Origin: Methanomassiliicoccales archaeon | GTDB taxonomy: Archaea; Thermoplasmatota; Thermoplasmata; RBG-16-68-12; SOIM01 | Reading direction: 5' to 3' | Length of the DNA stretch: 64,000 bases | Assembly: GCA_030593295.1 (NCBI GenBank) | Contig: JAUVHO010000005.1 | Coordinates: forward strand, 9,827-73,826 | Part shown: positions 2,642 to 37,218 of the stretch, one piece after another | Layout: each line of letters starts with the position of its first letter | Numbering within the stretch: position 1 is the first letter of the stretch | Notes under the pieces: model-generated | Database searches by the model: none | What the model was told of the DNA's origin: nothing | What the model saw: only the letters and a program-made list of their open reading frames with translations | Position numbers and translations under genes: made by a program

Positions 2642-2643
2642 GC

Positions 2644-7122: not shown

Positions 7123-7225
7123 CTTCCATCCCTCGAAACGTGCTAGATCGGTGCGCGGGCACCGCTCCATGCGTGCATCCCATAGGATTGATCTCTCAAT
7201 CCCCCTTCGAGGCTAACTTCCCTTT

Positions 7226-7570
7226 TTACTCGAGATTCTCCATCGCCTTTGAGAGCCGTCTCCGGACGTATTCTCGCACTGCGTTGCGTATGGCGTCTTC
7301 CACCGAGACCGAATCTCCCTTCTGAACCAGTTCCTGGAGATCCACCACGTTGCCCTTAGGAAGCTCGATCGTCATCTTCTTGATGTATTCGGGTGCGAAC
7401 TGAGCTTCGATGAAGGTATCAATCGCGGCTCGGACAGCATCGGATAGTGTAGAGTATTCCCCGTTCTTGACTAGATGCTGGAGTGCGTCCACTGTTTCAA
7501 TTGGTATTCTGACTGTAACACGCTCTGTGTCCGATGCCATCTCTTTCCCAGCATTGACTATGTCAGACAT
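7226..7570 (-). CDS. single-chain tandem ribbon-helix-helix protein (CdrS-like position upstream of ftsZ)
   Basis: ORF 7226..7681, with the likely start at the internal ATG at 7570 (MSDIVNAG). There are two consecutive RHH units: RVTVRIPIETVDALQHLVKNGEYSTLSDAVRAAIDTFI and KMTIELPKGNVVDLQELVQKGDSVSVEDAIRNAVREYV. It is co-oriented with ftsZ, about 100 nt upstream of it. Confidence 0.7.
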   Translation of the reverse strand: MSDIVNAGKEMASDTERVTVRIPIETVDALQHLVKNGEYSTLSDAVRAAIDTFIEAQFAPEYIKKMTIELPKGNVVDLQELVQKGDSVSVEDAIRNAVREYVRRRLSKAMENLE

Positions 7571-7622
7571 TTCTTTCTGTTTTGTCTGACAAATGTCGGT
7601 ATAGCGTCTGACATATATAAAG
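7561..7622 (-). promoter_or_regulatory. promoter (TATA) plus three phased TGTCNGACA operator-like dyads
   Basis: The dyads are tgtcagaca at 7561-7569 (overlapping the start codon at 7568-7570), tgtctgaca at 7583-7591 and cgtctgaca at 7605-7613, exactly 22 bp apart. The minus strand reads AACCTTTATATATG at 7611-7624, a BRE/TATA-like element. Confidence 0.6.
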
Positions 7623-7784
7623 GTTTTGGACTCTCGGTCAGAGGTTGTAATCGCAAAGATTGTTACATTGAACCATGGCAAAACTTAACAGTATTGTTCC
7701 TGATACTGGTACCATCATCCTTAAGTGAATCTGACCCGGATGATGGGCAGTTCTGGCATCGGACTGTCGAAGGAGAGAGCTGGA

Positions 7785-10700
7785 ATGAAAAGGGCTAGCA
7801 CTAAAGCAATGAAGAGAATCATTTCCCTGGGGGTGTCCTCCTGTTTTCTTTTCTCGTCTCTTATGATCCTGGTCTCTTTTCATTCAGATTATGTCAAAGC
7901 ATTGTCGCCCACTTGGGGAGATGCAATGGAAATGGGTCCTGGAGAGTGGAAGAACTATTCCAACGGTGCGGGGACGGAGTGGCAGTTGGGCATACCTAAG
8001 AACGTGGGCCCCAATTCGACCCATTCAGGGGTGAACGCCTGGGGGACAAACATCGCCGGGAACTACTCGACCGAGACTCTGGCTTATCTGGAATCGCCGC
8101 CATTCGACCTGGCATTATCCACTAACACCGAACTCGTCTTCTGGCATTACTTGGAGACCGAGGACAATGTAACCAACAACTGGGACGGAGGGATCATAGA
8201 GGTCTCAACCGACACCGGCATCACCTGGGTCCAGATCGATGATCCGATCATGCCCAATCCCAATCCTTACTACGACACCAACCTGGACAACACGAGGAAC
8301 AACCCATTGGGAGGGAAGGAAGCGTACTGTTACGACCGCTCTGAGTGGGAGGAGATTTCAGTCGATCTATCGCAGTTCGACGGTTCTTCTAGTTTCATGT
8401 TCAGGTTTGCCTTTGGAAGCGACACGACCGGTGGTTCTCCGGGATGGTACATAGATGACGTGCTCATCTCAGCGGATGTGAAGGAGGGTGTGATCGTAGA
8501 GCCGGATTATTCAAGGATCGACCTGGCTGGTACGATTCACAGATTCAACCTGACGGTCAGGAACCTGCAGAAGATATCTGATGTGATTGACATAGTTCTC
8601 GATGACATCCATGGATGGCCGATGGATCTCTTCATGTGGGACGGGGTCTCGCCCCTTGCCGATACGGGTGGTCTACCGGGCATTCCGGACACTGGCTCGT
8701 TGTTCAAAGGAGCATCTAGAGATATTGTTCTTGAGGTCACGATACCTACGGGAACTCCGTACGGCGTGAATAATCTGATACAGGTGAAGGGAGTGCCATA
8801 CTCGGGGCCAGCGGCCATTGATGCAGCGTATGTTCATCTGTCAACACCAACGCCGGACGTTTCCATCATCGATTTCTCGGTCCCTGGAGTTCAAATCTCA
8901 GGTGAAGAAGCGAACGTCACGGCCACGATAAGGAACAACGGCCAGTACAATCGGTCGTTCGATGTTAGACTGGACACGAGCGGACCCGGAGAATTGCAGT
9001 ACGATCCCGTTAGAAGTGTCGAGGACTTGGGTGTCGATGAGATGACAAGCGTCTACTGGACGTTCATTCCATCAATCGCGGGAGATTACATTGTGGAGGC
9101 GATGACGCTGCTGGATATCGATGTGGTCCCCGGGAACAACGCATCCTCCAGGCAGATGACCGTGATGACGAAGCTCTTTGAGGATACGATGGAGACCGGA
9201 GGTCCGGCATCCCAGGGCAAGTGGACAGCGGGAAGCCAGTCCCAGACCGCCTGGGAATTGGGAGTCCCGGCCAACGTCGGACCAAGTTCGTGTCATTCAG
9301 CGACCAAATGCTGGGGGACGAACCTCGACTCGGCCTACAGGAAGGCTGCGGACATCAGGTTGGAAACACCGACCATAGACCTTTCGGGATCGGACAGGGC
9401 AGTGCTGAGGTTCTCGCATTTCTACCAGATCCTGGGGCCATGGATGAATGACGGTGGATTCGTTGAGATAAGCAGTGATGGGGGTTCGTCTTGGAGTTAC
9501 ATGGAGCCGTTAGGCGGTTATTCAGGGAGCGTGGATCTGAGCGCCCCCACGCCTCCGGGGCCAGGTGCTGATGCTTATGCGGGCTCCAGTTCCGACTGGA
9601 TGACGGCCGAATTCGATCTCAATCCGTATTCCGGCAAGCAGATAATCATCGGTTTCCACCTCTGGACGGATCCGTCCAACTACCAGGCTGGGTGGGCTGG
9701 ATGGTACATTGACGATGTGCAAATCCTAAACGTGCCAAAGGGGCCTGTTCTGATATTCACCGAGATTCAGGACAGTGGTCAGGGAAATGAACTGGTGGAG
9801 GTCTACAACAGCGGAAAGGTCCCGGACCACCTGACGCATTACTCCATATCGACAGATGGAGGCATCACGAACATAGAAGGTTCTTGGAGCACTGACCGGA
9901 TAGACCCGGGCAAATACGCTTTCTTCACAACTTCGGGAGATGAGCTGGACGATGATGGCGAGATGCTGCACCTCCTGAACACTTCCTCCAACGAGATGAT
10001 GTATCAGATTGGCTTTGGGCAGAGAGGCCCGGTCCCCGACCCGATTTCAAAAGAGTCTTCCAGCAGATTCTGGAACGGCAACGAATACGAGGATTATTGG
10101 ACCAGATCGGCGAACACATCGTTCGGAGCACGCAACGACGTTCGATCGAGGAACGCTCAAACAGAGGTCGTGCTCAACGAGGTCCTCTTCAACCCGTCAA
10201 CGGCTGGCGATGAGTTCGTAGAGATATTCTACTCCGGAAACGGTTCGGTGAACCTGAAGAACTACACTTTGGTCTGCGACAGCGCCCATACGGTTGATTC
10301 AGATTTCATCCTGGACGCCGTACACGATCATTACATAATGCTTCCCACGGACTACCCAGGCCTGTTCGCGGAAATGGACTCCGGGGGGGAGAATCTCTAC
10401 TTGTACGATTCCACTGATTCCTTCCTGGACATGGTGGGCTGGAGCTCCGGGAACGAGGTCGGCAAGTCGATGGCAAGAGTGCCTGAGGGTCTTGGATCCC
10501 GTGACGGGTATGATGACATTAGCTCCCAGCAGGGAGGGTGGCGGTTCGGCTCCGAGCCCACGATGGCTCTCATCGGGCTAAGGCCAGACCAGTCGGGGTA
10601 CGGGGATCTGGGCGATGTTGTGAGCTATTCTCTTACGATTCTGAACCAGCCAATAGATGACCTCATCACTCTGACCTACAGCACCGGACGCCCGTGGCAG

Positions 10701-13043
10701 ATCGACCTGTACACCGAGAACTGGTCCCCTCTCCCGGATACGAACTCGGATGGTCTTCCGGACACTGGTCAGCTCCCTGCATCCTCGTCCTACAACTTCA
10801 ACTTGAAAGTAACCATACCTGCACAGCCTCCGATCGGGAATGAGATGATGGCGGAGATCTACGCGAGTTCCACGGTCAACAAGGCGAGGGATTTCGCGAC
10901 CATAGTTACCAAGACAAGACCTCATCTGGAACCCATGAAGACGGCCGATCCAGAGGAGATATACCTCAAGGGGGTGGGGATCAATGAGCTCACTGAGATC
11001 ACTCTGGAAGTCTTCGGGGGAGGTTACATGCTCACGGACAGGCATCCCCAGGACACCATCTTCGTGATAGACAGCTCGGGAAGCATGCAGGACAGCGACC
11101 CTTTCAACCTAAGACTGGAAGCGTCAAAGAGGTATGTTGACAACATGAGCATTCCCGACAGAGGAGCGGTGGTCGATTTCGACCACGCAGCCTTTCTGGC
11201 CCCGATTGGCAACGGGGACCATCTTAGCAGTGATTATACACGGATCAAACAGAACATAGACACCATCGATTCCAACGGGGCCACAGATGTTGGTCTTGGA
11301 TTGAAGGTGGCCAACGAGGAACTAATCGCCAACGGGGATCCCACCCATCTCTGGATCGAGATCTTGATGACGGATGCTTGCCAGCCTGACACTTACTACC
11401 CTGAAACTACATTGCAGATACAGAACGCAACGGATGCTGGCATCATAATATTCAGCATCGGATTGGGGGAAGAAGTCAACGAGCCTTTGCTCATAGAGAT
11501 CGCTGAGCGCACCGGAGGAGAGTACTACCACGCTCAGGACCCTACGGCCCTGCAGGAGATATACGGCAAGATAGAGATGATCATATACGACATTGCTGGG
11601 CGGGATGGGGACCTGACAGATGCTGACCGCATGATAAGGGACGTGATACCTCCGTACATCCACCTGGAGTGGGGATCTTTCTCCATCTATCCCGACGTCA
11701 TCTACCATACGATGGAGGGCACCTTCCTGGAATGGGAGGTGGCAAGGATCAAAGTGGGTGAGAACTGGAAGGTCTCCTACAAGGTTAGCAGCTCCCAGCT
11801 GGGTTGGGTGCCGGTGGGGGTCTATCCGGAGGCGAGGGTCAGCTACATCAAGTGGAACAACCAGTACGTGATACATTCGTTCCCGGACGTCAAGGTCCAC
11901 GTCATCCTTCCGCCCACCGACCCGATCGTGATAGGCCCTCCGAAGGACCTCAGGACCTCTCTGGAGGGTAACACGGACATCCGTTTGGACTGGACCCCTC
12001 CAGATGAACCCACGGTCAGCCATTACCTGATATATCGTTCGGTGGACCAGAGAGATTTCGATTTCACAGGTCCGATTCATGATACTTCAGATGATGTGAA
12101 CCCTAGACGAAGTGATTGGCTGGATACGGGAGCAGCAGACATCGGTGCCCCAAGAGAGTACTACTATGTGGTAAGGGCTGTGGATAATGGGGGCTCTGTG
12201 AGCAATACCAGCAACACAGCGGGAAAGTGGACGAGGACATTCGAAGCGGGACTGAACGCCTTCTCCCTTCCGCTGGAACCGTACCACCCTCTGAACGTTA
12301 GCGAACTGGGGAACGAGATACCCAACGCCGAGTTCATCAGAAGGATCAGGAGCGACGGGGGATGGGGCACTCATACAGTGGGCATGAAGGGAGTGGTCAG
12401 TGATGAAGAAGCTCTTGTCGGCAAGGGGTATGAGATATCGGTGTCAAAAGAGACCAGATACACGTTCGTTGGTTTTCCCGGGTCCATGATAAGTTTCCAT
12501 GAAGGGTTCGGGGATGCCGTGGGGTTCAGAAAGAGCCTGGTAGCTGACGCGCAGAGTGCGGATATGGCGATCACTTGGCAATCCCTATCTGGTGCTTCAG
12601 AATATGAAGTGTACAGGTCCACCAGCAGGGACGGCTTGTTCAATGAGGCTCTGCAACCCGTTGCAACGGTTCCAGCTTCTCTCAACCAATTCGTGGATGT
12701 TGGAGCTGTGCTGCCGGGAACGGAACACTATTACTGGGTCGTGCCAATCGACTCGGCCGGGAAGAGGGGAAGCAGCACCTACAGCGTCGGAGTGTGGATA
12801 GGTAATTATCAGAAAGGCTCGGACACCATCTCCTCTCCGTTGAAGTTGCTGATCCAGATCTCAATCGATGAGTTGTGCGACATGAACGAGGATGTGGTGG
12901 GGATAGCGTACTTGACAAACGGGGTATGGAAATTCCATTCAAGAGAGATGCCGGCTTCGGTCTACAATATGGTCTTCCTGCAGGGGCAGGGGTACCAGAT
13001 ATCGAGCGAGAATGATGTCCAATTGATTTTCATCGGCTATTAA
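7785..13043 (+). CDS. giant multidomain surface protein (2x lectin/MAM-like module, 2x lamin-tail domain, vWA, FN3 repeats)
   Basis: ORF 7725..13043, with the likely start at the ATG at 7785 (MKRASTKAMKRIISLGVSSCFLF, a signal or anchor). Its domains are: a repeated module (WQLGIPKNVGPNSTHSGVNAWGTN...GWYIDDV and WELGVPANVGPSSCHSATKCWGTN...GWYIDDV); LTD-like segments (NELVEVYNSG, VVLNEVLFNPSTAGDEFVEIFYSG); a vWA MIDAS motif (FVIDSSGSMQ, GATDVG); and FN3 (IRLDWTPPDEPTVSHYLIYRS, ITWQSLSGASEYEVYRS). Confidence 0.75.
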   Translation: MKRASTKAMKRIISLGVSSCFLFSSLMILVSFHSDYVKALSPTWGDAMEMGPGEWKNYSNGAGTEWQLGIPKNVGPNSTHSGVNAWGTNIAGNYSTETLAYLESPPFDLALSTNTELVFWHYLETEDNVTNNWDGGIIEVSTDTGITWVQIDDPIMPNPNPYYDTNLDNTRNNPLGGKEAYCYDRSEWEEISVDLSQFDGSSSFMFRFAFGSDTTGGSPGWYIDDVLISADVKEGVIVEPDYSRIDLAGTIHRFNLTVRNLQKISDVIDIVLDDIHGWPMDLFMWDGVSPLADTGGLPGIPDTGSLFKGASRDIVLEVTIPTGTPYGVNNLIQVKGVPYSGPAAIDAAYVHLSTPTPDVSIIDFSVPGVQISGEEANVTATIRNNGQYNRSFDVRLDTSGPGELQYDPVRSVEDLGVDEMTSVYWTFIPSIAGDYIVEAMTLLDIDVVPGNNASSRQMTVMTKLFEDTMETGGPASQGKWTAGSQSQTAWELGVPANVGPSSCHSATKCWGTNLDSAYRKAADIRLETPTIDLSGSDRAVLRFSHFYQILGPWMNDGGFVEISSDGGSSWSYMEPLGGYSGSVDLSAPTPPGPGADAYAGSSSDWMTAEFDLNPYSGKQIIIGFHLWTDPSNYQAGWAGWYIDDVQILNVPKGPVLIFTEIQDSGQGNELVEVYNSGKVPDHLTHYSISTDGGITNIEGSWSTDRIDPGKYAFFTTSGDELDDDGEMLHLLNTSSNEMMYQIGFGQRGPVPDPISKESSSRFWNGNEYEDYWTRSANTSFGARNDVRSRNAQTEVVLNEVLFNPSTAGDEFVEIFYSGNGSVNLKNYTLVCDSAHTVDSDFILDAVHDHYIMLPTDYPGLFAEMDSGGENLYLYDSTDSFLDMVGWSSGNEVGKSMARVPEGLGSRDGYDDISSQQGGWRFGSEPTMALIGLRPDQSGYGDLGDVVSYSLTILNQPIDDLITLTYSTGRPWQIDLYTENWSPLPDTNSDGLPDTGQLPASSSYNFNLKVTIPAQPPIGNEMMAEIYASSTVNKARDFATIVTKTRPHLEPMKTADPEEIYLKGVGINELTEITLEVFGGGYMLTDRHPQDTIFVIDSSGSMQDSDPFNLRLEASKRYVDNMSIPDRGAVVDFDHAAFLAPIGNGDHLSSDYTRIKQNIDTIDSNGATDVGLGLKVANEELIANGDPTHLWIEILMTDACQPDTYYPETTLQIQNATDAGIIIFSIGLGEEVNEPLLIEIAERTGGEYYHAQDPTALQEIYGKIEMIIYDIAGRDGDLTDADRMIRDVIPPYIHLEWGSFSIYPDVIYHTMEGTFLEWEVARIKVGENWKVSYKVSSSQLGWVPVGVYPEARVSYIKWNNQYVIHSFPDVKVHVILPPTDPIVIGPPKDLRTSLEGNTDIRLDWTPPDEPTVSHYLIYRSVDQRDFDFTGPIHDTSDDVNPRRSDWLDTGAADIGAPREYYYVVRAVDNGGSVSNTSNTAGKWTRTFEAGLNAFSLPLEPYHPLNVSELGNEIPNAEFIRRIRSDGGWGTHTVGMKGVVSDEEALVGKGYEISVSKETRYTFVGFPGSMISFHEGFGDAVGFRKSLVADAQSADMAITWQSLSGASEYEVYRSTSRDGLFNEALQPVATVPASLNQFVDVGAVLPGTEHYYWVVPIDSAGKRGSSTYSVGVWIGNYQKGSDTISSPLKLLIQISIDELCDMNEDVVGIAYLTNGVWKFHSREMPASVYNMVFLQGQGYQISSENDVQLIFIGY

Positions 13044-27733: not shown

Positions 27734-27823
27734 CGGGACAGATTCGACGACTTCTGTGGGATGAATATGTTTGCAACGATATACTGAAATATCCAATTTC
27801 CATTATTTCTGGTGGGATGTACG

Positions 27824-28522
27824 ATGACAAACAACGGCACAATCGTTCGGCTCGAGAAAGTCACCAAGGAATACGTGATGGGGGAAACGACCACAAAGGC
27901 ACTTGATGCGGTCGACCTTGAAATTCAGAAGGGAGAGTTCCTGGTAATCCTCGGCCCAAGCGGCTCCGGAAAGACGACGCTTCTTAACATGATAGCTGCA
28001 CTGGACAGCCCTTCCAAGGGGAAGATCTACGTCGACAGGGATGAGATTTCGGCCTTATCCGACAGCCAACGTACGAAGTTCCGCGCCGAGAAGATAGGTC
28101 TCGTTTTCCAGTTCTTCAACCTGTTCCCCGCCCTGACGGCCAGAGAGAACGTGGAGATAGGTCTGGCACTGGCGATGAAGGACCCTGATGAGATGAGGAA
28201 GAGGTCCACCAAATACCTCAAGATGGTCGAGATGGAGAAACACATGGACAAGTATCCTTCCCAATTGAGCGGTGGTGAGCAACAGAGGGTCGCCGTCGCG
28301 AGAGGCTTGGCAAAGGAACCCAGCATACTGGTAGCGGATGAACCAACCGGTAACCTGGACGCGGAAACGGGCAAGAAGGTCTGGGAGATGCTCCTGCGGA
28401 TCAACAAGGAGCTGGGAACAACCATGATCTCGGTGACCCACCAGACCCAGATGTCCAAGGTCGCGGACAGGGGCATATTTCTGAGATCGGGCAAGATCGC
28501 TCAGGTCGTGACCGGGGGCTAG
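27824..28522 (+). CDS. ABC transporter ATP-binding protein (MacB/LolD-type)
   Basis: Walker A (GPSGSGKTT), signature (LSGGEQQRVAVARGL), Walker B (ILVADEPTGNLD). Confidence 0.9.
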   Translation: MTNNGTIVRLEKVTKEYVMGETTTKALDAVDLEIQKGEFLVILGPSGSGKTTLLNMIAALDSPSKGKIYVDRDEISALSDSQRTKFRAEKIGLVFQFFNLFPALTARENVEIGLALAMKDPDEMRKRSTKYLKMVEMEKHMDKYPSQLSGGEQQRVAVARGLAKEPSILVADEPTGNLDAETGKKVWEMLLRINKELGTTMISVTHQTQMSKVADRGIFLRSGKIAQVVTGG

Positions 28523-28524
28523 AT

Positions 28525-30879
28525 ATGGGATATCTGGACCGGAAGATGAGAAGGGACCTGTGGCGAATGAAAGGTAGAGCGATAGCGAGCGTTCTCCTGA
28601 TCACCGTGGGCGCCATGCTGTACGTGTCCTTCATGGCCATGATGCCGAGCGTTCAGACCTTCTTCTATGACTATTATGAGGAGTCGGACTTCACGGATTT
28701 CGAGGTCTACGTGAACCATGCTTTCATGAACGTGACCCAACAGCTCGAGGCCATTCCAGGAGTGGAGGCCGTCGAGCCCAGGCTGGCCTTCCCGGCAAGT
28801 GTGGCGTTGTCCAGCACTGAAGAAGTCACGGGTCAATTATACGGGGTCAACTCGAGCAGGGAGATGTTGGTGAACAGGCTGACTGTCACAAGCGGACGAT
28901 ATCTCGATCCCTCCGATCCGAACGGGGTCCTTTTGGACAAGAACTTCGCTGGCAACAAGGAATACGAAGTGGGTGACCAGATCGACCTCGTCATACAGCA
29001 GCAAACACATACATACACCATCAGGGGTCTGGTCGTGTCACCGGAGTTCCTGTTCTGGGCGATCGACGCCGAAGCGATGATCCCGCTACCCGGGACCCTG
29101 GGAATCGTGTTCATGCCTTTGGAGACGCTGCAACTGGCCCTCCCCGCATACACTGGAGCCGTCAATCAATTCTCATTCCTGCTTACGGAAGATCTTGAAG
29201 AGGACGCGAAAGAGGACATCGTCGAGATCCTGTATCCTCCATTGCTGGTGCTGAACAAGGAGGACATCCCGGTCTACGCACTCATAAAAGAGGATCTCGA
29301 ACAGGGGGGAGGTTCCACGGCAGCAATAGCGCTTGTGTTCCTTCTTGTTGCTTTCTTCGTGGTCTACTCGGCATATGTTAGATTGGTCGCGAGCCAGAGG
29401 AGGGAGATCGGCGTGCTCAGAGGACTTGGATACTCCCGCAGACGGATATTGTTCTCCTACATCTATCTCGCAGCGATCACAGGACTGGTGGGATCCATTC
29501 TAGGTGTCATACTGTCGATACCTCTGGGGTTCTATCTCACTGATTGGTATATTCAAATGGTCTTCGGCCTAACCTCAGATACAGTACATTTTGACGTCAT
29601 GTCAGGGGTTGTAGGTCTTCTCTTCGGACCGATAACAGCAGGTCTGGCTGCGGCCGTTGCCACCGTGAGCATCATCAGGCTTGAAGCTCATGAGGCGATC
29701 AGAGGTGGCACAGTGGACATGAAGCCCGTCAAGAAGACCCTCCTTGAGCGCATCTTCGGCGTCTTCAGAGGCAAGAAGTTGTCCTATGCCACCATCTACA
29801 TGAGCCGGAATCTGTCCAGAAGGAAGGTCAGAAGCGGGCTGATGGTCTTGGCAATAGCTGGGTCGTTCGTCCTTGGGGTCATGGGTCCTGTCATGGTCGA
29901 TGCAATGGTCGTATCGGTCGACCTGGCTCTTGATGACATTGAGAAATGGGACCTGCTTGTGGAGTTCTCTGGAACGGTAAATCGGACACAGGTAGATGGA
30001 ATAGACTCTCTGACCATAGACCACAAAGAACCTGTCTTACGGATAGCTGGGACCGTCGGGGACGAGAACACCCCTGTCAGTTTGATCGGCATTCCATTGG
30101 ACTCTGAGCTCCACAAGTTCAAGCTGGACAAGGGGAGAGTGTTCAACGCTCCGAACGAGACGGTAGTGACCACGCTGATGGCAAAGGAGCTTGGTGCGAG
30201 TGTAGGCGACGCCTACGAGATGGGTGGTTTCACATTTCAGATAACGGGAATTGCGAAGGACTTTCAAGAGGGATTCTTCATTCCAATATCGCAGGCCAGG
30301 ACGATAGCGAATGCGAACACCACAACGGATCAGTATGCCACCGCCTTGTGGGTGCGAGCGACAGACGGGCAGATATCAGAGGCTGAGGACTACTTCCGAA
30401 GCTTGCCCTTCGTCTCTTCGGTGACGGAGAAGACAGAGGTCAGCCAAGGCTTGAAGGAGCTACTGGCGTCTTTCGGGGCCGCCATGTACATTTTCTCCAT
30501 AATCGGCATACTGATGACGGTCCTCGTGGTCACCAACATAGTGATGATCAGCGTGATGGAGAGGTACGTCGAGTACGGTCAGATGAAGGCTATTGGGTAC
30601 AAGCAGAGAACCATCCGGAGGATCGTGCTGTCAGAGGTCCTGATTCTTGCGATTGCTGGAGTTGGGGTGGGGATTCCGCTCTATTGGTTGGTTGGAGAGT
30701 GGTTCGTAGTAATCATGGAGGAATTCTTCTCGTTCTATGAGAACATCATAGTCTGGGAACCAATGGTTGCCATGGCAATAGTGACGATAGTCGTGGCTCT
30801 TCTGGCAGCGTTGCCTGCAGTACGCCATCTTGGCAAGATGGAGGTTGCGACGGTGATATCGGAGAGGCAGTTCGGTTAG
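28525..30879 (+). CDS. ABC transporter permease with two FtsX-like domains
   Basis: 784 aa. The MacB-like N-terminus is RKMRRDLWRMKGRAIASVLLITVGAMLYVS, and there are two 4-TM FtsX modules with GVLRGLGYSRRRI and MKAIGYKQRTI loops. Confidence 0.85.
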   Translation: MGYLDRKMRRDLWRMKGRAIASVLLITVGAMLYVSFMAMMPSVQTFFYDYYEESDFTDFEVYVNHAFMNVTQQLEAIPGVEAVEPRLAFPASVALSSTEEVTGQLYGVNSSREMLVNRLTVTSGRYLDPSDPNGVLLDKNFAGNKEYEVGDQIDLVIQQQTHTYTIRGLVVSPEFLFWAIDAEAMIPLPGTLGIVFMPLETLQLALPAYTGAVNQFSFLLTEDLEEDAKEDIVEILYPPLLVLNKEDIPVYALIKEDLEQGGGSTAAIALVFLLVAFFVVYSAYVRLVASQRREIGVLRGLGYSRRRILFSYIYLAAITGLVGSILGVILSIPLGFYLTDWYIQMVFGLTSDTVHFDVMSGVVGLLFGPITAGLAAAVATVSIIRLEAHEAIRGGTVDMKPVKKTLLERIFGVFRGKKLSYATIYMSRNLSRRKVRSGLMVLAIAGSFVLGVMGPVMVDAMVVSVDLALDDIEKWDLLVEFSGTVNRTQVDGIDSLTIDHKEPVLRIAGTVGDENTPVSLIGIPLDSELHKFKLDKGRVFNAPNETVVTTLMAKELGASVGDAYEMGGFTFQITGIAKDFQEGFFIPISQARTIANANTTTDQYATALWVRATDGQISEAEDYFRSLPFVSSVTEKTEVSQGLKELLASFGAAMYIFSIIGILMTVLVVTNIVMISVMERYVEYGQMKAIGYKQRTIRRIVLSEVLILAIAGVGVGIPLYWLVGEWFVVIMEEFFSFYENIIVWEPMVAMAIVTIVVALLAALPAVRHLGKMEVATVISERQFG

Positions 30880-30966
30880 GTGGGTAGCAAACTGGAATGG
30901 AATCCGTCTGTTCAGTTTCCCAGGAAGCTCTCTAAGATAGACGCATTGCTCCCGAGCGTGTTCACC

Positions 30967-31749
30967 CTAGAGACACTTCGCCTTTTTCCATCTCCGCTCG
31001 AAGGCCTCGGCCAGTGCCTCAAAGATATTTCTGTTTGCTGAATTATCCAAGACAATAGCGAAGGACTCCTTAGCCCCCAAGTCCTTTATGCTATGACCCA
31101 GTACAACAAGACGCTCGGTCGCCAATACATATCTATCGTGTATGTCTCTATATGGATAGTCCCTGAATTCGATTCTTGGGTGTTCTGACTTGAAATCGTC
31201 GAGTTCTCTGAAGAATCTGTCTTTCTTCTTTCCCTTCAGATGATCCACTCTGGTCAAGAACTTGACATTCCAGTCGGTGAAGTCACTCAAGATGTCTAGG
31301 GTCCTTCTTCCACAATATGGATCGACAATTCTCAAATCACTCTTGAGCAAACCAAGAATGTCCTCGGACAGCAGTCTCTTTGTGGTGAATCTCTTCCCTG
31401 GCTCAAAATAGAAGGCCTCGATGGATCCCTTTGTCGTCTTTGACACCAAATGATCTTTACCAGATTTCATGATCTCATAGTGGACGCTTCCCTGTTCTTT
31501 GTGGATGTGAACTCTGACTCCAGATCTACTGAGGGAGTTGGTAACCGATCTGGCATTTATGCTGACCTCCTTCTCCCTGATGAGCGCAGCAATCTGCTTG
31601 GCTGTGAGTCTTCTTACTCCCAACTCTTCTTTTGCAACCCACAGAATCCATAGACTCATGTCCAGGGTATTCTCCATTCCATAGAAATCGGGATATTCTG
31701 CGGTTTCGGCTTTCAAGAGTTCTTGAGACAGATTCGCCTCGTCAGACAT
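30967..31749 (-). CDS. wHTH protein with C-terminal HKD-less PLD-like domain (operon gene C)
   Basis: ORF 30967..31761. The likely start is the ATG at 31749, which overlaps the upstream stop (ATGTCTGA). The N-terminal wHTH is LTAKQIAALIREKEVSINARSVTNSLSRS..VHYEIMKSGKDHL. The C-terminus has RIVDPYCGRRTLDIL, IHDRYVL and VVLGHSIKDLG. Confidence 0.55.
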   Translation of the reverse strand: MSDEANLSQELLKAETAEYPDFYGMENTLDMSLWILWVAKEELGVRRLTAKQIAALIREKEVSINARSVTNSLSRSGVRVHIHKEQGSVHYEIMKSGKDHLVSKTTKGSIEAFYFEPGKRFTTKRLLSEDILGLLKSDLRIVDPYCGRRTLDILSDFTDWNVKFLTRVDHLKGKKKDRFFRELDDFKSEHPRIEFRDYPYRDIHDRYVLATERLVVLGHSIKDLGAKESFAIVLDNSANRNIFEALAEAFERRWKKAKCL

Positions 31750-32254
31750 TCCAAGCCTCACACAACGCTTTGATGATCTCTCGACATTTTGCCTCTCCCA
31801 GAGGGGTTAGCCTATACGTTGTTTTCGGGCTTCTCGGCTTGCCCTTTTTCCGAATGAAAGAGGGTATTATCTCGTTGAGATACGTGCTGAAATTATCTAT
31901 CGGAACTCCGTTCTCACCAACATTCCTCCGTATTTCCTTGGATAGTACCTGGATTTGTCCCAATAGAAACTTGTATCCCACGAGTGTCAATAGAGTAATG
32001 TCCTGGCTCAGTCCCTTGTTATCTTGACCAGAGAATCTGGTGACAGTCAGTTGATTCCCTTCGACATCAAATATCCCCCTGACACACTCCGTGTCGACTC
32101 CCGCCTTTCCTGCTAGTCGCCTGATTCCCGTAATCACGCCGACTTCTTCTGGAAGTTCCGGTCCTCCGGTCCTGACACGTTCTTCCAGTTTCCTTAATCG
32201 TTCCTCATGATCTCTCAGGGTCGTCTTCAGTTCGGCAATCTCACGACTACTCAT
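31742..32254 (-). CDS. coiled-coil plus wHTH-like protein (operon gene B)
   Basis: 170 aa: REIAELKTTLRDHEERLRKLEERV, then SKEIRRNVGENGVPIDNFSTYLNEI..KTTYRLTPLGEAKCREIIKAL. It has 8-nt overlaps with both neighbours. Confidence 0.55.
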   Translation of the reverse strand: MSSREIAELKTTLRDHEERLRKLEERVRTGGPELPEEVGVITGIRRLAGKAGVDTECVRGIFDVEGNQLTVTRFSGQDNKGLSQDITLLTLVGYKFLLGQIQVLSKEIRRNVGENGVPIDNFSTYLNEIIPSFIRKKGKPRSPKTTYRLTPLGEAKCREIIKALCEAWNV

Positions 32255-32738
32255 TTTCTACCCCCAAGTCTTCCAGAAACTCGTCAATTGCATAAGGAGC
32301 AGCTCTGTATGTCCCCCTAGCCACAAACACAATCTTGCGGGCATCCTTCAAATCCTTAAGCCGTGCGGAAATGACTGCATCTTTTTCTCTGAGCATTGTG
32401 ACTAGTTCCTTGCTGTTAACATTTTCATCTATGGTGACTTCCTTACCTAACTTCTTCTGCAGTCGATTCCCTAGAAACCTTGCTATAGTAACAAGCAGAA
32501 TCTTGTCGGCAATTTTGAGCCCCTTCCTTTGGATGATGACGTTTCCATTCGCATCGATTTTGCAGAGGGTTGATATCTTCTCAATCAATGATTTCAGCTC
32601 TTTGCGTTCAATATCTTCTCTTACAATGAATGACTTCTCAAGTTCTTCGAGTTCTTCAGGCATGTGACCAATCCTAGAGTATTTTCCATCTGTGAAGTAT
32701 ATTTGTACTATATCTATGTTGCTATCAATGATGTGCAC
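32247..32738 (-). CDS. acidic coiled-coil plus wHTH-like protein (operon gene A), paralogue of B
   Basis: Starts at the GTG at 32738 or the ATG at 32663 (MPEELEELEKSF). The sequence reads ...LKIADKILLVTIARFLGNRL..SKELVTMLREKDAVISARLKDLKDARKIVFVARGTYRAAPYAIDEFL. Confidence 0.5.
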   Translation of the reverse strand: MHIIDSNIDIVQIYFTDGKYSRIGHMPEELEELEKSFIVREDIERKELKSLIEKISTLCKIDANGNVIIQRKGLKIADKILLVTIARFLGNRLQKKLGKEVTIDENVNSKELVTMLREKDAVISARLKDLKDARKIVFVARGTYRAAPYAIDEFLEDLGVENE

Positions 32739-33075
32739 ATGATAGTAGGTGCACCACTTGGTTCACAACGCATCTACGAAGAAGTTCATACTTCCATACA
32801 TCTTGCAGAAGAGCAGTCAAGTTGCTTTTGGAAGTTCAGTCTGACATCACTCAACCGCAGGCCCACTTTGCCTAGAAGTCGAGTATTCAGATAACGGGTG
32901 GCGTCTCTCGTGTTGGGTTTTGGCGTGATTGAGAGAATCGTCACTCACAATTGCCTCCAACTCTGCTACACTAACAATGATGGGGACCTCACATCTGAAG
33001 ACGCAAAGATGACCCTGCTGGGAGTGGCGCTTTCTGTTAGGAAGCTGAAATGATGAGTGCTCAATCGGAGGGCTG

Positions 33076-33663
33076 GTGCACCAGGAAGACGCAAGAAGAA
33101 TTGAAACTTCTACCCAAACCCTTATAATCCGTGCTTACATGTGGATTGCCACAGAACATCGAGGGGATGCTGTGATTGATCAGCAATACAGAATTAGGAT
33201 TCGAAGAGGCGAAACTGAGATTGATCTCCAAGGAGATAAGGCATTCGTGATAGAACACTTGGAAATCCTGGGTAAAGAGTTACCCAAAGCTTTCGAAGAT
33301 GAGGAAGTCTCAAGGGGGCCAGTTACCCAGAAGCGCCATATGAGAGACAGAGAATTGCAGAAACTATCATTGGCCGAGTTCTACAAGGAGAGAAGGCCGG
33401 AAACCAAGACCCAAGCAGTCGTGACATTCGCTTACTGGCTAACCAAGAGAGAAGGGAAGAATGAATTCAAGGGAACCGACATAATGTCATGCTTTGACGA
33501 AGTCAGGATACCTAAACCAGAAAATGTACATGACATCCTAGGGAAGCTAGCCAGTGGCAGCAAGGCCCACATCACGCCATCGTCTAGCAAGGGTCACTGG
33601 AAACTCACATTGACAGGAGAGGAGTTTGTAGAGAACCAATTGTCAGAGAAAAAGGAAGGGTAG
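33076..33663 (+). CDS. wHTH-like protein divergent from the A-B-C operon (gene D)
   Basis: GTG start at 33076, preceded by GGAGGG at 33067-33072. The C-terminus is AVVTFAYWLTKREGKNEFKGTDIMSCFDEVRIPKPENVHDILGKLASG..GHWKLTLTGEEFVENQL. Confidence 0.5.
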   Translation: MHQEDARRIETSTQTLIIRAYMWIATEHRGDAVIDQQYRIRIRRGETEIDLQGDKAFVIEHLEILGKELPKAFEDEEVSRGPVTQKRHMRDRELQKLSLAEFYKERRPETKTQAVVTFAYWLTKREGKNEFKGTDIMSCFDEVRIPKPENVHDILGKLASGSKAHITPSSSKGHWKLTLTGEEFVENQLSEKKEG

Positions 33664-33670
33664 ACCAGAT

Positions 33671-34405
33671 TCAACGATGTTGGTTCTTCTCAGCAATTGC
33701 GATGTAATCTCCTTTCTCCAAATCTCCTGGAATGATGCTCTTCACTTTCCATCCAGTTTCACTGCAGAGTTCCATCATCTCAACCGGGGAGACGAGAAGG
33801 AAATCCCAAGGCTTCCCCTTCTTGCCCTTGTATTCGAAGACCAAAGTCACCAAACCGGGATCTCTTCCCCTCTCCAGGTTCCACTGGACGTATGATAGGT
33901 GATGTTCGTTGAATCCACCTGGCGTGATGGTCTGGGCAATGATCCTTCCTTTCTTTGACGTGATCCTGTGAAGGTCCCTGAGCATTCGCTTCGTCTTCCT
34001 CTTGGACCCGGCTATGCCGAAGTTGTTACCGAGCATCAGAATTGTGTCAAATAACCCAGGCTTGAATTGTAGCTTAGTCACATCCATTAGTCTGCAGTCC
34101 TTGACCCCCCTATCTCTGGCTACCTCGACAGTCGCTTCTGAGCAGTCTATTCCGGTAACCTTGAATCCCCTTCGTTGAAGATACAAAGCAACACGGCCGG
34201 GGCCGCAACCAACATCCAGGGTTCTGCCTCTAACGTGTTTGAGTGCCCTCTTCTCATAGAGGTCGAAATCTCGGAAGGAGCGGAAGTAAGTCTCAGGACT
34301 GAAGGGATCGACGTAGCCATCGTCTCTGACGATTCTCACGTTCACCTTCTTGCCTTCATGGTAGTCTCTATTCGCTTCTCCAAAGATGTCCATGCTCTCT
34401 CGCAT
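33671..34405 (-). CDS. class I SAM-dependent methyltransferase
   Basis: ORF 33671..34663, with the likely start at the ATG at 34405 (MRESMDIF). Motif I is TLDVGCGPGRVALYL, and FDTILMLGNNFG is also present. Confidence 0.7.
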   Translation of the reverse strand: MRESMDIFGEANRDYHEGKKVNVRIVRDDGYVDPFSPETYFRSFRDFDLYEKRALKHVRGRTLDVGCGPGRVALYLQRRGFKVTGIDCSEATVEVARDRGVKDCRLMDVTKLQFKPGLFDTILMLGNNFGIAGSKRKTKRMLRDLHRITSKKGRIIAQTITPGGFNEHHLSYVQWNLERGRDPGLVTLVFEYKGKKGKPWDFLLVSPVEMMELCSETGWKVKSIIPGDLEKGDYIAIAEKNQHR

Positions 34406-34547
34406 GTTCTGCACCAAACGCAGACTGGCTAAAGACTTTTCCCCTCTCCAGCACGATATTATGTTATCATTCTCAGAAACAGGACCATTTACACCTAAGC
34501 AACATGTAGTAACACCCTTTGATAACCCCCAAATCAATCGATTCTCC

Positions 34548-34787
34548 ATGTCCGGAATAAGCTCGAAAGTGGGGCCCAACGGCCAACTAGTGATACCCGA
34601 AGAGATAATCAACAGTCTAGATTGGATGCCAGGTGCAGATGTCAGTCTCTCGATAGAGGACAACAGACTCGTTGCTCGGAAGTCGATCCCAAAGAGCGTA
34701 CCGTTCTTCTACGCCCTGGCCATGAAGAGCCTCGAGGAGATGAGGCGCAGAAAACACGAAACACAAGAGCGGGCACTGAACTCATAA
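34548..34787 (+). CDS. AbrB/SpoVT-MazE-family DNA-binding protein (solo)
   Basis: ORF 34386..34787, with the likely start at the ATG at 34548. SKVGPNGQLVIPEEIINSLDWMPGADVSLSIEDNRLVARK is a swapped-hairpin AbrB motif. Confidence 0.6.
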   Translation: MSGISSKVGPNGQLVIPEEIINSLDWMPGADVSLSIEDNRLVARKSIPKSVPFFYALAMKSLEEMRRRKHETQERALNS

Positions 34788-34844
34788 TAGCGTTCCAAAC
34801 CTTTTTCTCATACTTTCGAATACGTCAGCTCGGAAAGAGCTTGC

Positions 34845-35921
34845 ATGACCAGTGACTTCACGCCTTACCAAGTGGACAAGGCAACCTACGAACGATTCGA
34901 CCAGAAGATGATTTGTTTTTCCAGATGGAGATGGGACGAGGATTTCATCGCTTACGGCAAGGGGATATATGACAATGCGCCTGCCAAGATCGCACAGGGA
35001 CTGGAAGGATACTCGAAAGAAGAGTTCGTGGCAATAGAGGCCACCTGGCACGTTCACGACACCTTCGCCAGAATAAAGGCACTGAACGCGGGTGAGCTTG
35101 AGAGGGATTCTTTTCCGAATAAGATAGGTGATGTCTCGGGCTATACGCCGGAGAGCAACTCGGCGCAGGTCAAGAAGTTCGTCAAGGGTCTCGGATCTTC
35201 GACGGTGGGAACGACTAGAGTCAATCCGGACTGGGTCTATACCAGCGATGTCAGGGGGAACGCCCTGAACTTGGAGAACCTCCCATATGCTGTCGTGTTC
35301 GCGGTCCCAATGGACCAGGCCAAGCTGAAGAGGTCTCCGTCCTATGTTGCCTCGGCGGCTGTTGGTGTTGCCTATTCGAGGTGCAGGTTCATCGCAGAGA
35401 GCCTGGCAGAGTTCATCAAGCGTTTGGGTTACAATGCCTTACCAGCAGTGAATGAGACTGCAATCTCTGTCCCTCTTGCCATTGATGCTGGCCTGGGAGA
35501 GTTCGCGAGGAACGGCCTCCTGATCGGGGAGAAGTACGGAATGGGTGTGAGAATCGGCAAGGTTCTGACTGACATGCCCCTGGCTCAAGACACGCCTGTG
35601 AACCTGGGGGTGAGGAGATTCTGCACGAAATGCAGGAAGTGTGCCGAGAACTGTCCCGTGAATGCGATCTCCTTCGAGGATCAACCTGACGGAAAGACAT
35701 TGACAAAATCAAACAACCCAGGAATCCTGAAATGGTACGTTAACGTGGACAGATGTTACAGCTTCTGGACCCGCAACAGCTCCGACTGCTCCAATTGCAT
35801 TACTAGCTGCCCCTTCACCAAGCCGGATAATTGGCTCCACAGCACGACAAGGTCCGTCATCAAGCGAACTGGAGCATTTGACAGACTATTGGTGAAGATG
35901 GACAATGCATTGTATGGGTGA
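34845..35921 (+). CDS. reductive dehalogenase/QueG-superfamily Fe-S protein, no TAT signal
   Basis: Two ferredoxin-type clusters near the C-terminus (CTKCRKCAENCPVNAI and CSNCITSCPF). The overall length and layout are RdhA-like. Confidence 0.5.
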   Translation: MTSDFTPYQVDKATYERFDQKMICFSRWRWDEDFIAYGKGIYDNAPAKIAQGLEGYSKEEFVAIEATWHVHDTFARIKALNAGELERDSFPNKIGDVSGYTPESNSAQVKKFVKGLGSSTVGTTRVNPDWVYTSDVRGNALNLENLPYAVVFAVPMDQAKLKRSPSYVASAAVGVAYSRCRFIAESLAEFIKRLGYNALPAVNETAISVPLAIDAGLGEFARNGLLIGEKYGMGVRIGKVLTDMPLAQDTPVNLGVRRFCTKCRKCAENCPVNAISFEDQPDGKTLTKSNNPGILKWYVNVDRCYSFWTRNSSDCSNCITSCPFTKPDNWLHSTTRSVIKRTGAFDRLLVKMDNALYG

Positions 35922-36066
35922 CAATGCCCAGTCAAGAGGCCCTGATTTCAGCCAACCTTGTAGACAACACTTCGAAAGCACTTGAGCAGTTTGATCTTTC
36001 ACCAATAATACCCACTATGAAGTTTTGAGACAATCGTCTGAGTAAGCAACACTGGCTGGCATTTTC

Positions 36067-37026
36067 TCAGGAGGACTTCTCGAGACTTTTCAGCATTCGC
36101 TTCGCAGTGGACAGTAGCTGATCATATGTGAGAATCTTCATCCGATTCAGGTACGCATTATGGATTCTGAGATTCTTATCCACTTCAGCGTCTGATCTGC
36201 CAATTACTATTCGACCTTCCGGTTTGAGAATATCCATCTTGAGCTCTGTGTAGTGTTGTGTATAAAGAGTGTCGCATTTGTGCAAATACTGAATCATCTG
36301 TGAGATTGCATTCTTTGAAATCGCACTCAGTCTACTTCGTGAAAAGATCTTGGCATCGGCTTTCTTGAGTTCTACGATGTTGTAGAATCCATCAAGACGT
36401 TCCAAGAGGAAATCGCCTCTGAGTTTAAATCCAATCTGCTGTTCAGATCTCGCTGAAACATACTGGGGACCGAAAATCCAATGGTTCTCTTTCAAGAAAG
36501 TATGAAGTTCTCTCTCTTTCTCGCTTGTGGCGAGGAGTCTCTCGAATGCTTTGAGGGTTGCCTTATGCTGAGGAAGTTTGGTCTTCATCTGAGACTCAAG
36601 AGTGGTTTTGAGGTTTCTCCTCATCCTTAGGACATCGTTCTGCATGTCCCTCATTTCCCTCGTCCTCTGTTCTATCACCTTCTCTTTTCTCATAAGTGCC
36701 TGCTTGTGCTTCTTGACACTTATGAAGTCCTCGCCTTGAAGTGGTTCGATTTCAAATTCTGACCATCCAAGATATCTAGCGAGAGAGCCGTCAACCAAAC
36801 GACAAATCTGCCTCCAATGGTCCTCTCTATTGATGCGAATGCCTGAGTTTATCACTCTTCCTCCAGCATCCCACCATTTCCTGATCTTTAAGTACCTGAC
36901 CCCAGAATCCTCTTCTCTAACCTCGACTCGGAGGCCCCCTTTCCTGCCCATCATGTATATGTCGTCTTGAACTACAGTTCTGTCCATCTGTCTTTCTCTC
37001 ATTCCGTTCTCTTCCTTCTGTTCCAT
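36067..37026 (-). CDS. Shedu-like defence nuclease (DUF4263/SduA C-terminal domain)
   Basis: ORF 36067..37161. The likely start is the ATG at 37026, behind GGGAGGG. The C-terminal region reads FLKENHWIFGPQYVS...RGDFLLERLDGFYNIVELKKADAKIF...GRIVIGRSD...ILTYDQLL, which is the PD-(D/E)xK layout of DUF4263. Confidence 0.65.
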   Translation of the reverse strand: MEQKEENGMRERQMDRTVVQDDIYMMGRKGGLRVEVREEDSGVRYLKIRKWWDAGGRVINSGIRINREDHWRQICRLVDGSLARYLGWSEFEIEPLQGEDFISVKKHKQALMRKEKVIEQRTREMRDMQNDVLRMRRNLKTTLESQMKTKLPQHKATLKAFERLLATSEKERELHTFLKENHWIFGPQYVSARSEQQIGFKLRGDFLLERLDGFYNIVELKKADAKIFSRSRLSAISKNAISQMIQYLHKCDTLYTQHYTELKMDILKPEGRIVIGRSDAEVDKNLRIHNAYLNRMKILTYDQLLSTAKRMLKSLEKSS

Positions 37027-37218
37027 AGGGCTTCCCTCCCGAGCCCAAATGCTTCTGCATTCTAATAGGCTTTGCTGGATGGAGAACTGACCCGGGTAAC
37101 ATTGGTGAAGTGCTGTACAGAGTCTGGGGTTTCTGATATCATAGTCACCGACAATTATCAAATGAAACGCTCCGCTCGTAACATGGTTCCAAGCAACGTA
37201 GAGTGTGTTCCGTGTTCA

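Follow-up and report, generated by a model that had tools for sequence, protein, structure and literature searches.

The 64,000-nucleotide stretch analysed here (contig JAUVHO010000005.1 of a Methanomassiliicoccales archaeon, positions 9,827 to 73,826; referred to below as the window and numbered from its first letter) carries a compact block of four genes, A, B, C and D, which is present as a single strain-specific indel and the core of which recurs across Bacteria and Archaea. The balance of the evidence tips slightly towards these genes being a mobile, self-contained conflict cassette, in which C, tethered to DNA, would act as a dimeric, MIT_C-type phosphodiesterase or nuclease, and A, B and D would autoregulate the cassette and restrain C.

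A six-frame list of open reading frames (ORFs), together with a reading of the minus strand, places A, B and C on the minus strand and D, divergently transcribed, on the plus strand. Gene A (32247-32663, minus strand) encodes 138 amino acids (aa) from its likely start, ATG 32663, the longest ORF (32247-32738) extending up to GTG 32738. Gene B (31742-32254, minus strand) encodes 170 aa, and gene C (30967-31749, minus strand), the conserved putative effector, encodes 260 aa from its ATG. Gene D (33139-33663, plus strand) encodes 174 aa from ATG 33139, with GTG 33172 as an alternative start and a longest ORF of 33076-33663 from GTG 33076. An earlier, sequence-only reading of this DNA had described three minus-strand ORFs joined by two 8-nt start/stop overlaps, with D divergent from them, and its coordinates and both overlaps proved exact: on the minus strand, the stop of A overlaps the start of B in ATGAGTAG (32247-32254), and the stop of B overlaps the start of C in ATGTCTGA (31742-31749). 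The 337-bp spacer that it placed between A and D holds for the longest ORFs only; it lengthens to ~475-508 bp with the likely starts (ATG 32663 for A, ATG 33139 or GTG 33172 for D). The AT-rich patch noticed around the genes is real, with 46% GC versus 51-54% in the flanks (~45-46% for the cassette region versus 51-55% around it). Searches of Pfam, NCBIfam and PHROGs returned nothing significant for A, B, C or D.

The first line of evidence concerns the predicted structure of C. The AlphaFold2 (AF2) model, which was built with 40 homologues and has a predicted local distance difference test score (pLDDT) of 87, consists of a winged helix at the N-terminus followed by an alpha/beta domain. Residues 1-108 (31426-31749, minus strand), delimited by AF2 secondary structure and Foldseek, comprise an N-terminal helix and the winged helix, with helices at 28-43, 50-58 and 66-74 and wing strands at 80-93; Foldseek matches this region to TrmB family, AspA, Sso10a and ArsR-type winged helix-turn-helix (wHTH) proteins. 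Residues 109-260 (30970-31425, minus strand), delimited by invariant columns in the 40 homologues and by a PADLOC match described below, form a domain of the phospholipase D (PLD) fold. The closest Foldseek counterpart of this domain is MITD1 (4a5z, E 1.6e-4 to 2e-4, root-mean-square deviation (rmsd) 2.7-3.2 Å, 98 alignment columns; 2ymb, E 4.9e-4), and further matches are FAM83, PLD3/4, vaccinia F13, the NgoAVII R-protein (E 4.4e-4), phosphatidylserine synthase and Tdp1. MIT_C (PF16565) is also the commonest Pfam match in the C family, being detected, always below threshold, in 13 of 40 members as well as in some distant relatives. The best of these matches reach E 0.0035-0.009 and at most 17.7 bits, with a gathering score of 25 bits; the window C itself gives no match to Pfam MIT_C at E≤1. 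The PLD-like, MIT_C-like C-terminal domain that had been suggested for C is thus borne out at the level of fold by AF2 and Foldseek and by the sub-threshold MIT_C matches. Sequence searches of the PDB with C, both as a single sequence and as a profile, found nothing.

The pattern of conserved residues points in the same direction. Invariant across the 40 homologues are D143-P-Y, H204-D205-R206 (codons at 31132-31140), G218/S220 and K227-E228-S229. In the AF2 model, D143 follows strand 139-142, and H204-D205-R206 stands ahead of strand 207-209. PB-PLD1, the effector domain in some NsnC proteins of the Menshen system, has a conserved acidic residue following beta2 and the motif HDR ahead of beta5; it is closest to the MIT_C domain of MITD1, is also found at BrxL C-termini, and is a predicted nuclease effector of an antiphage system (PMC12065111). 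The same study groups the HDR variant of the PLD fold with the nucleases NucT and Tdp1 (PMC12065111). Going by its predicted structure, C is a wHTH fused to a PLD-fold domain of the MIT_C/PB-PLD1 type, and its D...HDR pattern fits exactly. When set against the HKD motif, HxK(x4)D(x6)GSxN, C reads H204-D-R206-(x11)-G218-H-S220-I-K, so that the His and Gly are in register; C nevertheless departs from the canonical motif, in that its Lys is replaced by Arg and its Asp and Asn are absent.

A related domain is already represented in a defence library. PADLOC PDC-S05 matches residues 104-251 of C (E 2.4e-11 over model positions 173-301 of 306; E 1.8e-10 over 149-281 of 285); the match is partial rather than full length, and the same partial pattern recurs in 10 relatives. 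Distant relatives of C also match PADLOC NsnC weakly (E 3.7e-8) via the PLD module. One PDC-S05 gene, when placed in E. coli, reportedly lowered the plating of T7 and T5 by ~1000-fold and protected against T4 as well; the protein tested carries a RhuM annotation (preprint 10.1101/2024.09.26.614923). Despite this annotation, an assignment of C as RhuM-like was rejected, since the Pfam RhuM model never matches C or its relatives.

The family to which C belongs is large and unnamed. A word-indexed search yielded 399 relatives at E≤1e-3, nearly all of them full length and 52-61% identical, while an exhaustive search yielded 1,139 clusters at 50% identity (E≤1e-3). Among the 40 homologues, the wHTH of C is conserved to the same degree as its PLD domain.

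The second line of evidence is the recurrence of the operon. A locus scan, which used one genome per species, found 41 loci. The bacterial ones belong to Nitrospinota, WOR-3, Ignavibacteria, Dehalococcoidia, Planctomycetota, Nitrospirota, Zixibacteria, Aminicenantes, Verrucomicrobiia and Actinomycetota, and the archaeal ones to Aenigmatarchaeota, Micrarchaeota, Bathyarchaeia, Methanosarcinales, Freyarchaeota and Heimdallarchaeota. In ~33 of 37 informative loci, from more than 20 phyla, the C homologue is immediately preceded by at least two small wHTH-type genes on the same strand. This count includes loci at which C had appeared to stand alone, because E- and F-type genes are present upstream of it there; the E-type partner is a small wHTH protein of 113-124 aa that ends in W.YV.R, and the F-type partner is a small wHTH protein with a coil plus ...GWVDSK..G.Y.LT.EW. 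Only one locus (L023) is clearly without small partner genes. In gene-caller maps of four long contigs, the arrangement was small gene, small gene, C in all four, with tight or overlapping spacing. Family hidden Markov models (HMMs) place the A family directly upstream of the B/D family in ~24 loci. The order by these HMMs is A, D-type, C in most bacterial loci, and A, B-type, C in the window and five archaeal metagenome-assembled genomes (MAGs), with an E-type gene in place of A at L009 and D-B-C at L001; the variant orders are D-B-C, A-D-D-C and D-A-C. Dozens of independent loci thus share the gene order of the A-B-C triad first described from the window.

At matched loci, the partners are much less conserved than C. 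The identity of C to the window protein is 40-56%, as compared with 14-27% for A (the exception being L011, at 54%) and 12-23% for the middle gene if it is D-type; B-type middle genes share 43-49% identity with the window at three of four loci and 23% at the fourth (L036). Moreover, C is ~55% identical to bacterial and archaeal homologues alike. Two Bathyarchaeia loci (L015 and L017) share 45-49% identity in B and 54-55% in C with the window and only 22-23% in A. Since the identity extends over B and C and does not include A, the first cassette gene may have been exchanged by recombination independently of the rest. One locus (L004, ERZ1286166 contig_3002, 1798-3553) appears to hold a decaying cassette, in which the middle gene survives as two pieces (58 and 32 aa) and the first gene is cut short, while C is intact; this copy adjoins a HEPN gene, transposase fragments and MazG genes.

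The third line of evidence is the presence of the cassette in one strain and its absence from others. Two contigs from closely related Thermoplasmata, L134 and L135, align collinearly with the window, at nucleotide identities of 86-95%. According to blastn, window positions 27776-30884 correspond to 6839-9946 of L135 (93%) and positions 33702-35902 to 9970-12169 (86%), leaving 2,817 nt in the window (30885-33701, unstranded, 46% GC) versus 23 nt in L135. This block contains C, B, A, D and nothing else, and its site lies between the convergent stop codons of an ABC permease gene and a methyltransferase gene. L134 is without window positions 30882-34463, i.e., without the block and the methyltransferase. 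Because all four genes share one strain-specific indel, D travels with A-B-C as one unit. The cassette is horizontally spread, and its spread includes transfer between domains of life. At the indel junctions there are no terminal inverted repeats of 7 nt or longer and no target-site duplications; the block has no integrase and the window no tRNA. A virus or plasmid origin was considered and rejected, as relatives are absent from IMG/VR, annotated phages and plasmids, and BFVD offers only generic PLD and wHTH folds.

The small partner proteins carry winged helices of more than one family. The AF2 model of B (pLDDT 88.5), which together with Foldseek and hhalign defines its layout, has a long, coiled-coil N-terminal helix, a small alpha/beta insert and a C-terminal winged helix; its top Foldseek matches (STIV F93, SSV1 F-93, the MarR family and AspA) are all wHTH proteins, with modest E-values. 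D consists of a small N-terminal module and a D-type winged helix (D-family HMM E 3e-37 over residues 59-194), and is homologous to first or middle cassette genes at other loci (E 8e-15 to 9e-8). The alignments of the B and D families are homologous (hhalign 99%, E 4.6e-18), so that D, earlier proposed as a wHTH paralogue, groups with B; the two are true paralogues in one family, with B as its archaeal 'B-type' branch. A consists of an N-terminal helix and an ArsR/MarR-like winged helix. Its family profile matches winged helices of the ArsR/SmtB/MarR/Lrp type in the C-terminal half (HlyU, the best, at E 1e-3; SmtB, AdcR, LrpA and AspA), and there is a weak match to the N-terminal wHTH of AbiEi (E 0.012). 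The paralogy of A and B that the sequence-only reading had seen in three regions had to be abandoned (hhalign probability 1.8%, P 0.03, for A versus B; 1.3% for A versus D). A is a wHTH protein of a separate family, not detectably related to B, D or the wHTH of C. The description of all four as wHTH paralogues therefore holds for B and D, and for A and the N-terminus of C it holds only in the sense of a shared fold, hhalign of A, B and D versus the wHTH of C being below 1% in every case.

The spacer between A and D contains candidate regulatory elements. On the A side, two palindromes with a GTGCAC core, ATGTGCACAT and AGGTGCACCA (32731-32756), lie 68-95 nt upstream of the A start; on the D side, there is a 12-nt perfect palindrome with the same core, CTGGTGCACCAG (33073-33084). 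The sequence GGTGCACC occurs twice in the 64-kb window, both times inside this spacer. Three of the nine GTGCAC sites of the window fall in the ~475-bp spacer, all of them palindromic; under uniform placement, the chance of this clustering is ~3e-5, a figure that applies to a region picked after seeing the sites. From these features we infer that the palindromes may serve as operators for the cassette. An operator shared across loci was rejected, as the GTGCAC palindromes are specific to the window. A promoter- or TATA-like element, TTGAAA-16-TATAAT (33101-33128, plus strand; 11/12 consensus matches), follows the D-side palindrome and closely precedes the likely start of D; since the host is archaeal, its TATAAT may act as a TATA box. 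Proteins in public records that are ≥90% identical to those of the window assign it to a Thermoplasmata archaeon. The position of this element, together with the fact that D relatives align from there, favours a later start of D, at ATG 33139 or GTG 33172. The GTG 33172 start fits relatives that open with the same small N-terminal module.

The fourth line of evidence is that both the effector module and its partners are found in other combinations. Judging by the sequences in which it is embedded, the HDR PLD module is a mobile domain. In one relative of C (P0155), a B-type protein is fused directly to the PLD domain; three others (P0241, P0255 and P0264) carry DnaJ-like CXXCXGXG zinc ribbons; in P0144, a hydrophobic stretch, read from the sequence as transmembrane (TM)-like, takes the place of the wHTH; and further N-termini are unrecognised. 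The genome of the Asgard archaeon Candidatus Freyarchaeum (CP147778, L001) encodes, in addition to C, a divergently transcribed 248-aa C paralogue (3877-4623, minus strand) that has an HDR PLD domain, a PDC-S05 match at E 1e-14 and another N-terminus. Directly downstream of C in the same genome lies the gene of a 680-aa protein (6838-8880, plus strand) without a Pfam match.

The partner families, in turn, precede other proteins. The E-F pair, which stands ahead of C in L028, L031 and L032, stands ahead of a different protein in L048-L051, where a D-like gene comes next and, after it, the gene of a 247-aa protein that combines a D-type wHTH with an RNKCGH (Rx4H) motif and whose precomputed Pfam family is AF_1680. 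D-like genes of a subclass with 209 metagenomic relatives are followed, in 41 of 52 loci, by the gene of a highly conserved 256-aa YEiRNNRGVGH protein, and the two genes often overlap by 4 nt. Neither this 256-aa RNNRGVGH family nor the 247-aa protein of L048 has a match in the PDB, in PADLOC or in the local copy of Pfam. Because no library recognises these alternative effectors, the term 'HEPN-like' as used here refers to their Rx4-6H motif. In L054-L133, this pairing forms a widespread, unannotated two-gene module (e.g., L079, 3989-5340; L052, 2668-4010), the first protein of which, 185-195 aa long, has an N-terminal domain, a lysine-rich linker and a D-type wHTH ending in GENLIEHDLPKK; the second, of ~256 aa, has the YEiRNNRGVGH motif and a C-terminal wHTH. 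A Heimdallarchaeota locus (L036, JABCTZ010000020, 669-5427) encodes A-B-C, D, B, a 119-aa protein weakly resembling TIR/nucleoside-deoxyribosyltransferase proteins, D, a 174-aa protein of no recognised type and a 182-aa protein with PycTM, the TM domain of Pycsar effectors (PF18967, E 1.3e-9, above threshold). By its gene content, this locus looks like several tandem cassettes in which the same partner families are combined with different effectors. Toxin-antitoxin, abortive-infection and defence systems, such as HEPN-MNT, AbiE and the Panacea antitoxins, are typically marked by fast-evolving, promiscuous partners beside conserved, interchangeable effectors.

Taken together, these observations are consistent with the following model. 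The cassette would act in defence against viruses or plasmids, or as a toxin-antitoxin-like addiction module. C would be the effector, tethered to DNA by its winged helix, and its MIT_C-type PLD domain (D143...H204-D-R206...G218-x-S220...K227-E-S229) would most likely be a dimeric, metal-independent phosphodiesterase or nuclease; since each protein has a single half-site, dimerisation of C would be required. A, B and D, of which B and D would combine an oligomerisation module with a wHTH, would be held in a fixed ratio with C via translational coupling. They would autoregulate the cassette by binding to the GTGCAC palindromes of the divergent promoter region, and would hold C inactive until a trigger arrives, which may be foreign DNA or the loss of the partners themselves. 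In proposing this model, we infer catalysis by C and the nature of its substrate, inhibition of C by A, B and D, and a protective phenotype.

Several observations weigh against it. Catalysis by C is putative, given the Arg in place of the HKD Lys and given that the MIT_C domain of MITD1 is membrane-binding and apparently non-catalytic. The match of C spans only ~42% of the PDC-S05 model. No homologues are found in IMG/VR contigs, annotated phages or annotated plasmids. Defence and mobile genes are a minority of the 121 nearest flanking genes at 38 loci (a raw count); there are 3-4 methylases, 2 integrases, 2 Fic and 2 IrrE-like genes among them, and the flanking genes, which differ from locus to locus, are mostly housekeeping. 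The GTGCAC palindromes are not conserved at other loci, as would be expected if each divergent partner set had its own operator. The HEPN-like label of the alternative effectors is motif-based only. Finally, the best full-length structural matches of C are DNA-binding regulators or chromatin proteins with a PLD-like domain that is non-enzymatic.

This last point bears on an alternative that we regard as unlikely, namely that the cassette is a transcription or chromatin regulator, with C as a TrmB/TrmBL2-like protein whose non-catalytic PLD domain senses a ligand (e.g., a phosphorylated one) and with A, B and D as co-regulators; it would then control mobile-element or host genes and would not attack nucleic acids. 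The best full-length Foldseek matches of C in the PDB are indeed TrmBL2 (E 1e-6) and TrmB (range E 1e-6 to 3e-4; 5box, 5bpd, 3qph), which share with C the overall architecture of an N-terminal wHTH followed by a PLD-like domain. The winged helices in all four proteins, the replacement of the HKD Lys by Arg, the fact that MIT_C, the closest sequence family, is not known as an enzyme, and the palindromes of the divergent promoter, which suggest classical repressor binding, would also fit. However, there is no relationship at the level of sequence: the Pfam models TrmB (PF01978) and Regulator_TrmB (PF11495) match neither C nor any of the 40 homologues at E≤1. The TrmB effector domain is not known to contain a D...HDR constellation, and the additional barrel subdomain at the C-terminus of TrmB is missing in C. 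TrmB proteins are host regulators rather than strain-variable multi-gene cassettes; here, no target gene is conserved, the flanks vary at every locus, and the block is a bare four-gene indel. An identity of ~55% across two domains of life is not expected of a host regulator either, and the same partner families precede toxin- or effector-type proteins (PycTM and the Rx4-6H motif proteins). The D...H-D-R...G-x-S...K-E-S constellation, moreover, resembles an active or phosphate-binding site and has been read as catalytic (PMC12065111).

It is more improbable still that C is a sequence- or modification-directed nuclease like BfiI/NgoAVII or the type IV restriction enzymes, with A, B and D as controllers or specificity subunits. 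The PLD nucleases (Nuc/NucT, BfiI, the NgoAVII R-protein, PLD3/4 and Tdp1) do share the fold of C (Foldseek E 2e-4 to 1e-2), and the NgoAVII R-protein among them is a PLD-family restriction endonuclease. C keeps the register of the HKD motif, with a His, a basic residue two positions on, a Gly 14 after the His and a downstream Glu; it differs from these enzymes in the change of Lys to Arg, the absent Asp and Asn, a Ser shifted by one and a single half-site per protein, so that its canonical HKD residues are incomplete. In joining a wHTH to a PLD domain, C resembles type IIS enzymes, in which a recognition part is coupled to a cleavage part; an S-adenosylmethionine (SAM)-dependent methyltransferase gene abuts D, and DNA methylases account for the 3-4 of the 121 flanking genes already mentioned. 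Yet no methyltransferase is conserved with the cassette, the adjacent one is of a generic small-molecule type and is present in L135, which has no cassette, and specificity domains usually diverge fast, whereas the wHTH of C is conserved like its PLD domain. A restriction-modification (R-M) system was rejected because no methyltransferase is conserved with the cassette and the adjacent one occurs in L135 without it.

A PLD domain directed at membranes or phospholipids as in MITD1, which would kill or arrest the cell by membrane damage, is highly improbable: MIT_C is the closest sequence family, MITD1 matches the domain at rmsd 2.7-3.2 Å over 98 alignment columns, the fold matches include the lipid-acting phosphatidylserine synthase and poxvirus F13, a PycTM membrane effector takes the equivalent position in L036 and a TM-like stretch replaces the wHTH in P0144, but C has a DNA-binding-type domain and no membrane-targeting features, in most of its relatives the PLD domain is likewise accompanied by a wHTH or by a zinc ribbon, and the variant is grouped with the nucleases NucT and Tdp1 in PMC12065111.

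A conflict cassette, the reading that we prefer, also has to be set against described systems. The earlier statement that the architecture matches no named system stands insofar as no library assigns A, B or D; it does not extend to the PLD module of C, which is known as PB-PLD1 and, in part, from PDC-S05. The effector domain has thus been described before, together with its predicted role, and a related single-gene candidate is present in PADLOC. With Menshen, C shares the PLD fold, the acidic residue after beta2 (D143 in C) and HDR before beta5 (H204-D205-R206), features of the MIT_C likeness as well. Menshen, however, is composed of NsnA (ParB/DUF262 plus a sensor), NsnB and NsnC (an inactive PIN domain plus an effector), and PADLOC gives no Nsn match for any of the four cassette proteins. 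MITD1, a protein of eukaryotes, binds ESCRT-III and membranes. Unlike in both of these, the PLD domain here shares a protein with a wHTH and has small wHTH proteins as its partners. PDC-S05 is homologous to C in its C-terminal ~130 residues; the N-terminal halves differ, RhuM is undetected in C by Pfam, and PDC-S05 is a single gene as opposed to a cassette of three or four genes.

The organisation also resembles that of type II and tripartite toxin-antitoxin and abortive-infection systems with promiscuous partners (AbiE; HEPN-MNT; PanA). Shared features are a small coupled operon, wHTH partners that diverge faster than the putative effector next to them, the pairing of given partner families with various effector domains, a patchy horizontal distribution with strain indels, and the weak AbiEi match of A. 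The cassette differs from them in that none of its proteins matches a recognised toxin or antitoxin family, its wHTH partners number two or three instead of one, and its effector contains a wHTH as well. An AspA-ParB-ParA partition system was rejected, since no ATPase gene is part of the cassette or a conserved neighbour of it and AspA is only a generic wHTH match. For the multi-wHTH cassette as such (A-B/D-C(-D) and its E, F and D2 variants with other effectors), the libraries searched gave no match to a defence, toxin-antitoxin, partition or R-M model, and a limited literature search found no description.

A broader proposal, which we put forward tentatively and to which we give less credence than to the cassette itself, is that the small wHTH types A, B/D, E and F, with their coiled-coil or beta-hairpin N-termini, form a combinatorial adaptor or sensor platform, used in sets of two or three, that would control wHTH-tethered, interchangeable effectors (MIT_C-type PLD, HEPN-like, PycTM and TIR-like). 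If this is true, the platform would be a new and widespread class of immune or addiction systems in Bacteria and Archaea, including Asgard archaea, and would provide the first functional context with the 'HDR' PLD domain of MITD1 and BrxL as an enzyme. If functional, the cassette would be an undescribed multi-gene conflict system missed by current defence finders, PADLOC giving a partial match to a single-gene candidate only. Archaeal defence repertoires known so far appear sparse, and the cassette occurs in anaerobes that are hard to study (Thermoplasmata, Bathyarchaeia, DPANN, Asgard archaea, Dehalococcoidia and Planctomycetota). At 2.8 kb and four genes, it is, in our opinion, a compact model in which to ask whether the MIT_C/'HDR' branch of the PLD fold (MITD1, BrxL C-termini, PB-PLD1 and PDC-S05) is catalytic and on what substrate, and how sets of small winged-helix proteins act as exchangeable control modules for effectors. 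Its presence or absence in sister strains provides a natural isogenic comparison.

The neighbourhood of the cassette contains other variable elements. A Shedu gene (SduA, DUF4263; 36067-37161, minus strand; SduA_C E 3.4e-17, PADLOC SduA E 2.7e-22) lies 2.4 kb from D, within a separate indel of 1,316 nt (35903-37218, 45% GC) between dehalogenase-like and dodecin genes that is absent from L134 and L135. The sequence-only reading had placed the A-D module in an AT-rich island about 2.4 kb from a Shedu-like nuclease; the identity and distance of that gene are correct. The Shedu indel is independent of the A-D block and does not belong to one island event with it, and its proximity reflects a variable region.

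The methyltransferase gene that adjoins D (33671-34663, minus strand) encodes a SAM-dependent enzyme (Methyltransf_25/11; PADLOC mad2 E 2.7e-13). Present in L135 and absent from L134, it is a third variable element, and the gene is probably ~241 aa long, as compared with the 330-aa ORF; because L135 has it without the cassette, it is unlinked to the latter. A small gene (34386-34787 of the window, plus strand; 10355-10594 of L134; 10815-11054 of L135) is located upstream of a gene for a reductive-dehalogenase-like Fe-S protein. Its 79-aa product in L135 matches Pfam MazE_antitoxin, and L134 has a 79-aa gene at the equal position without a recorded Pfam match. Given this MazE-type gene, together with ParE/DUF2683 and PIN genes located 3-9 kb upstream in the relatives, the stretch appears to collect toxin-antitoxin and defence genes.

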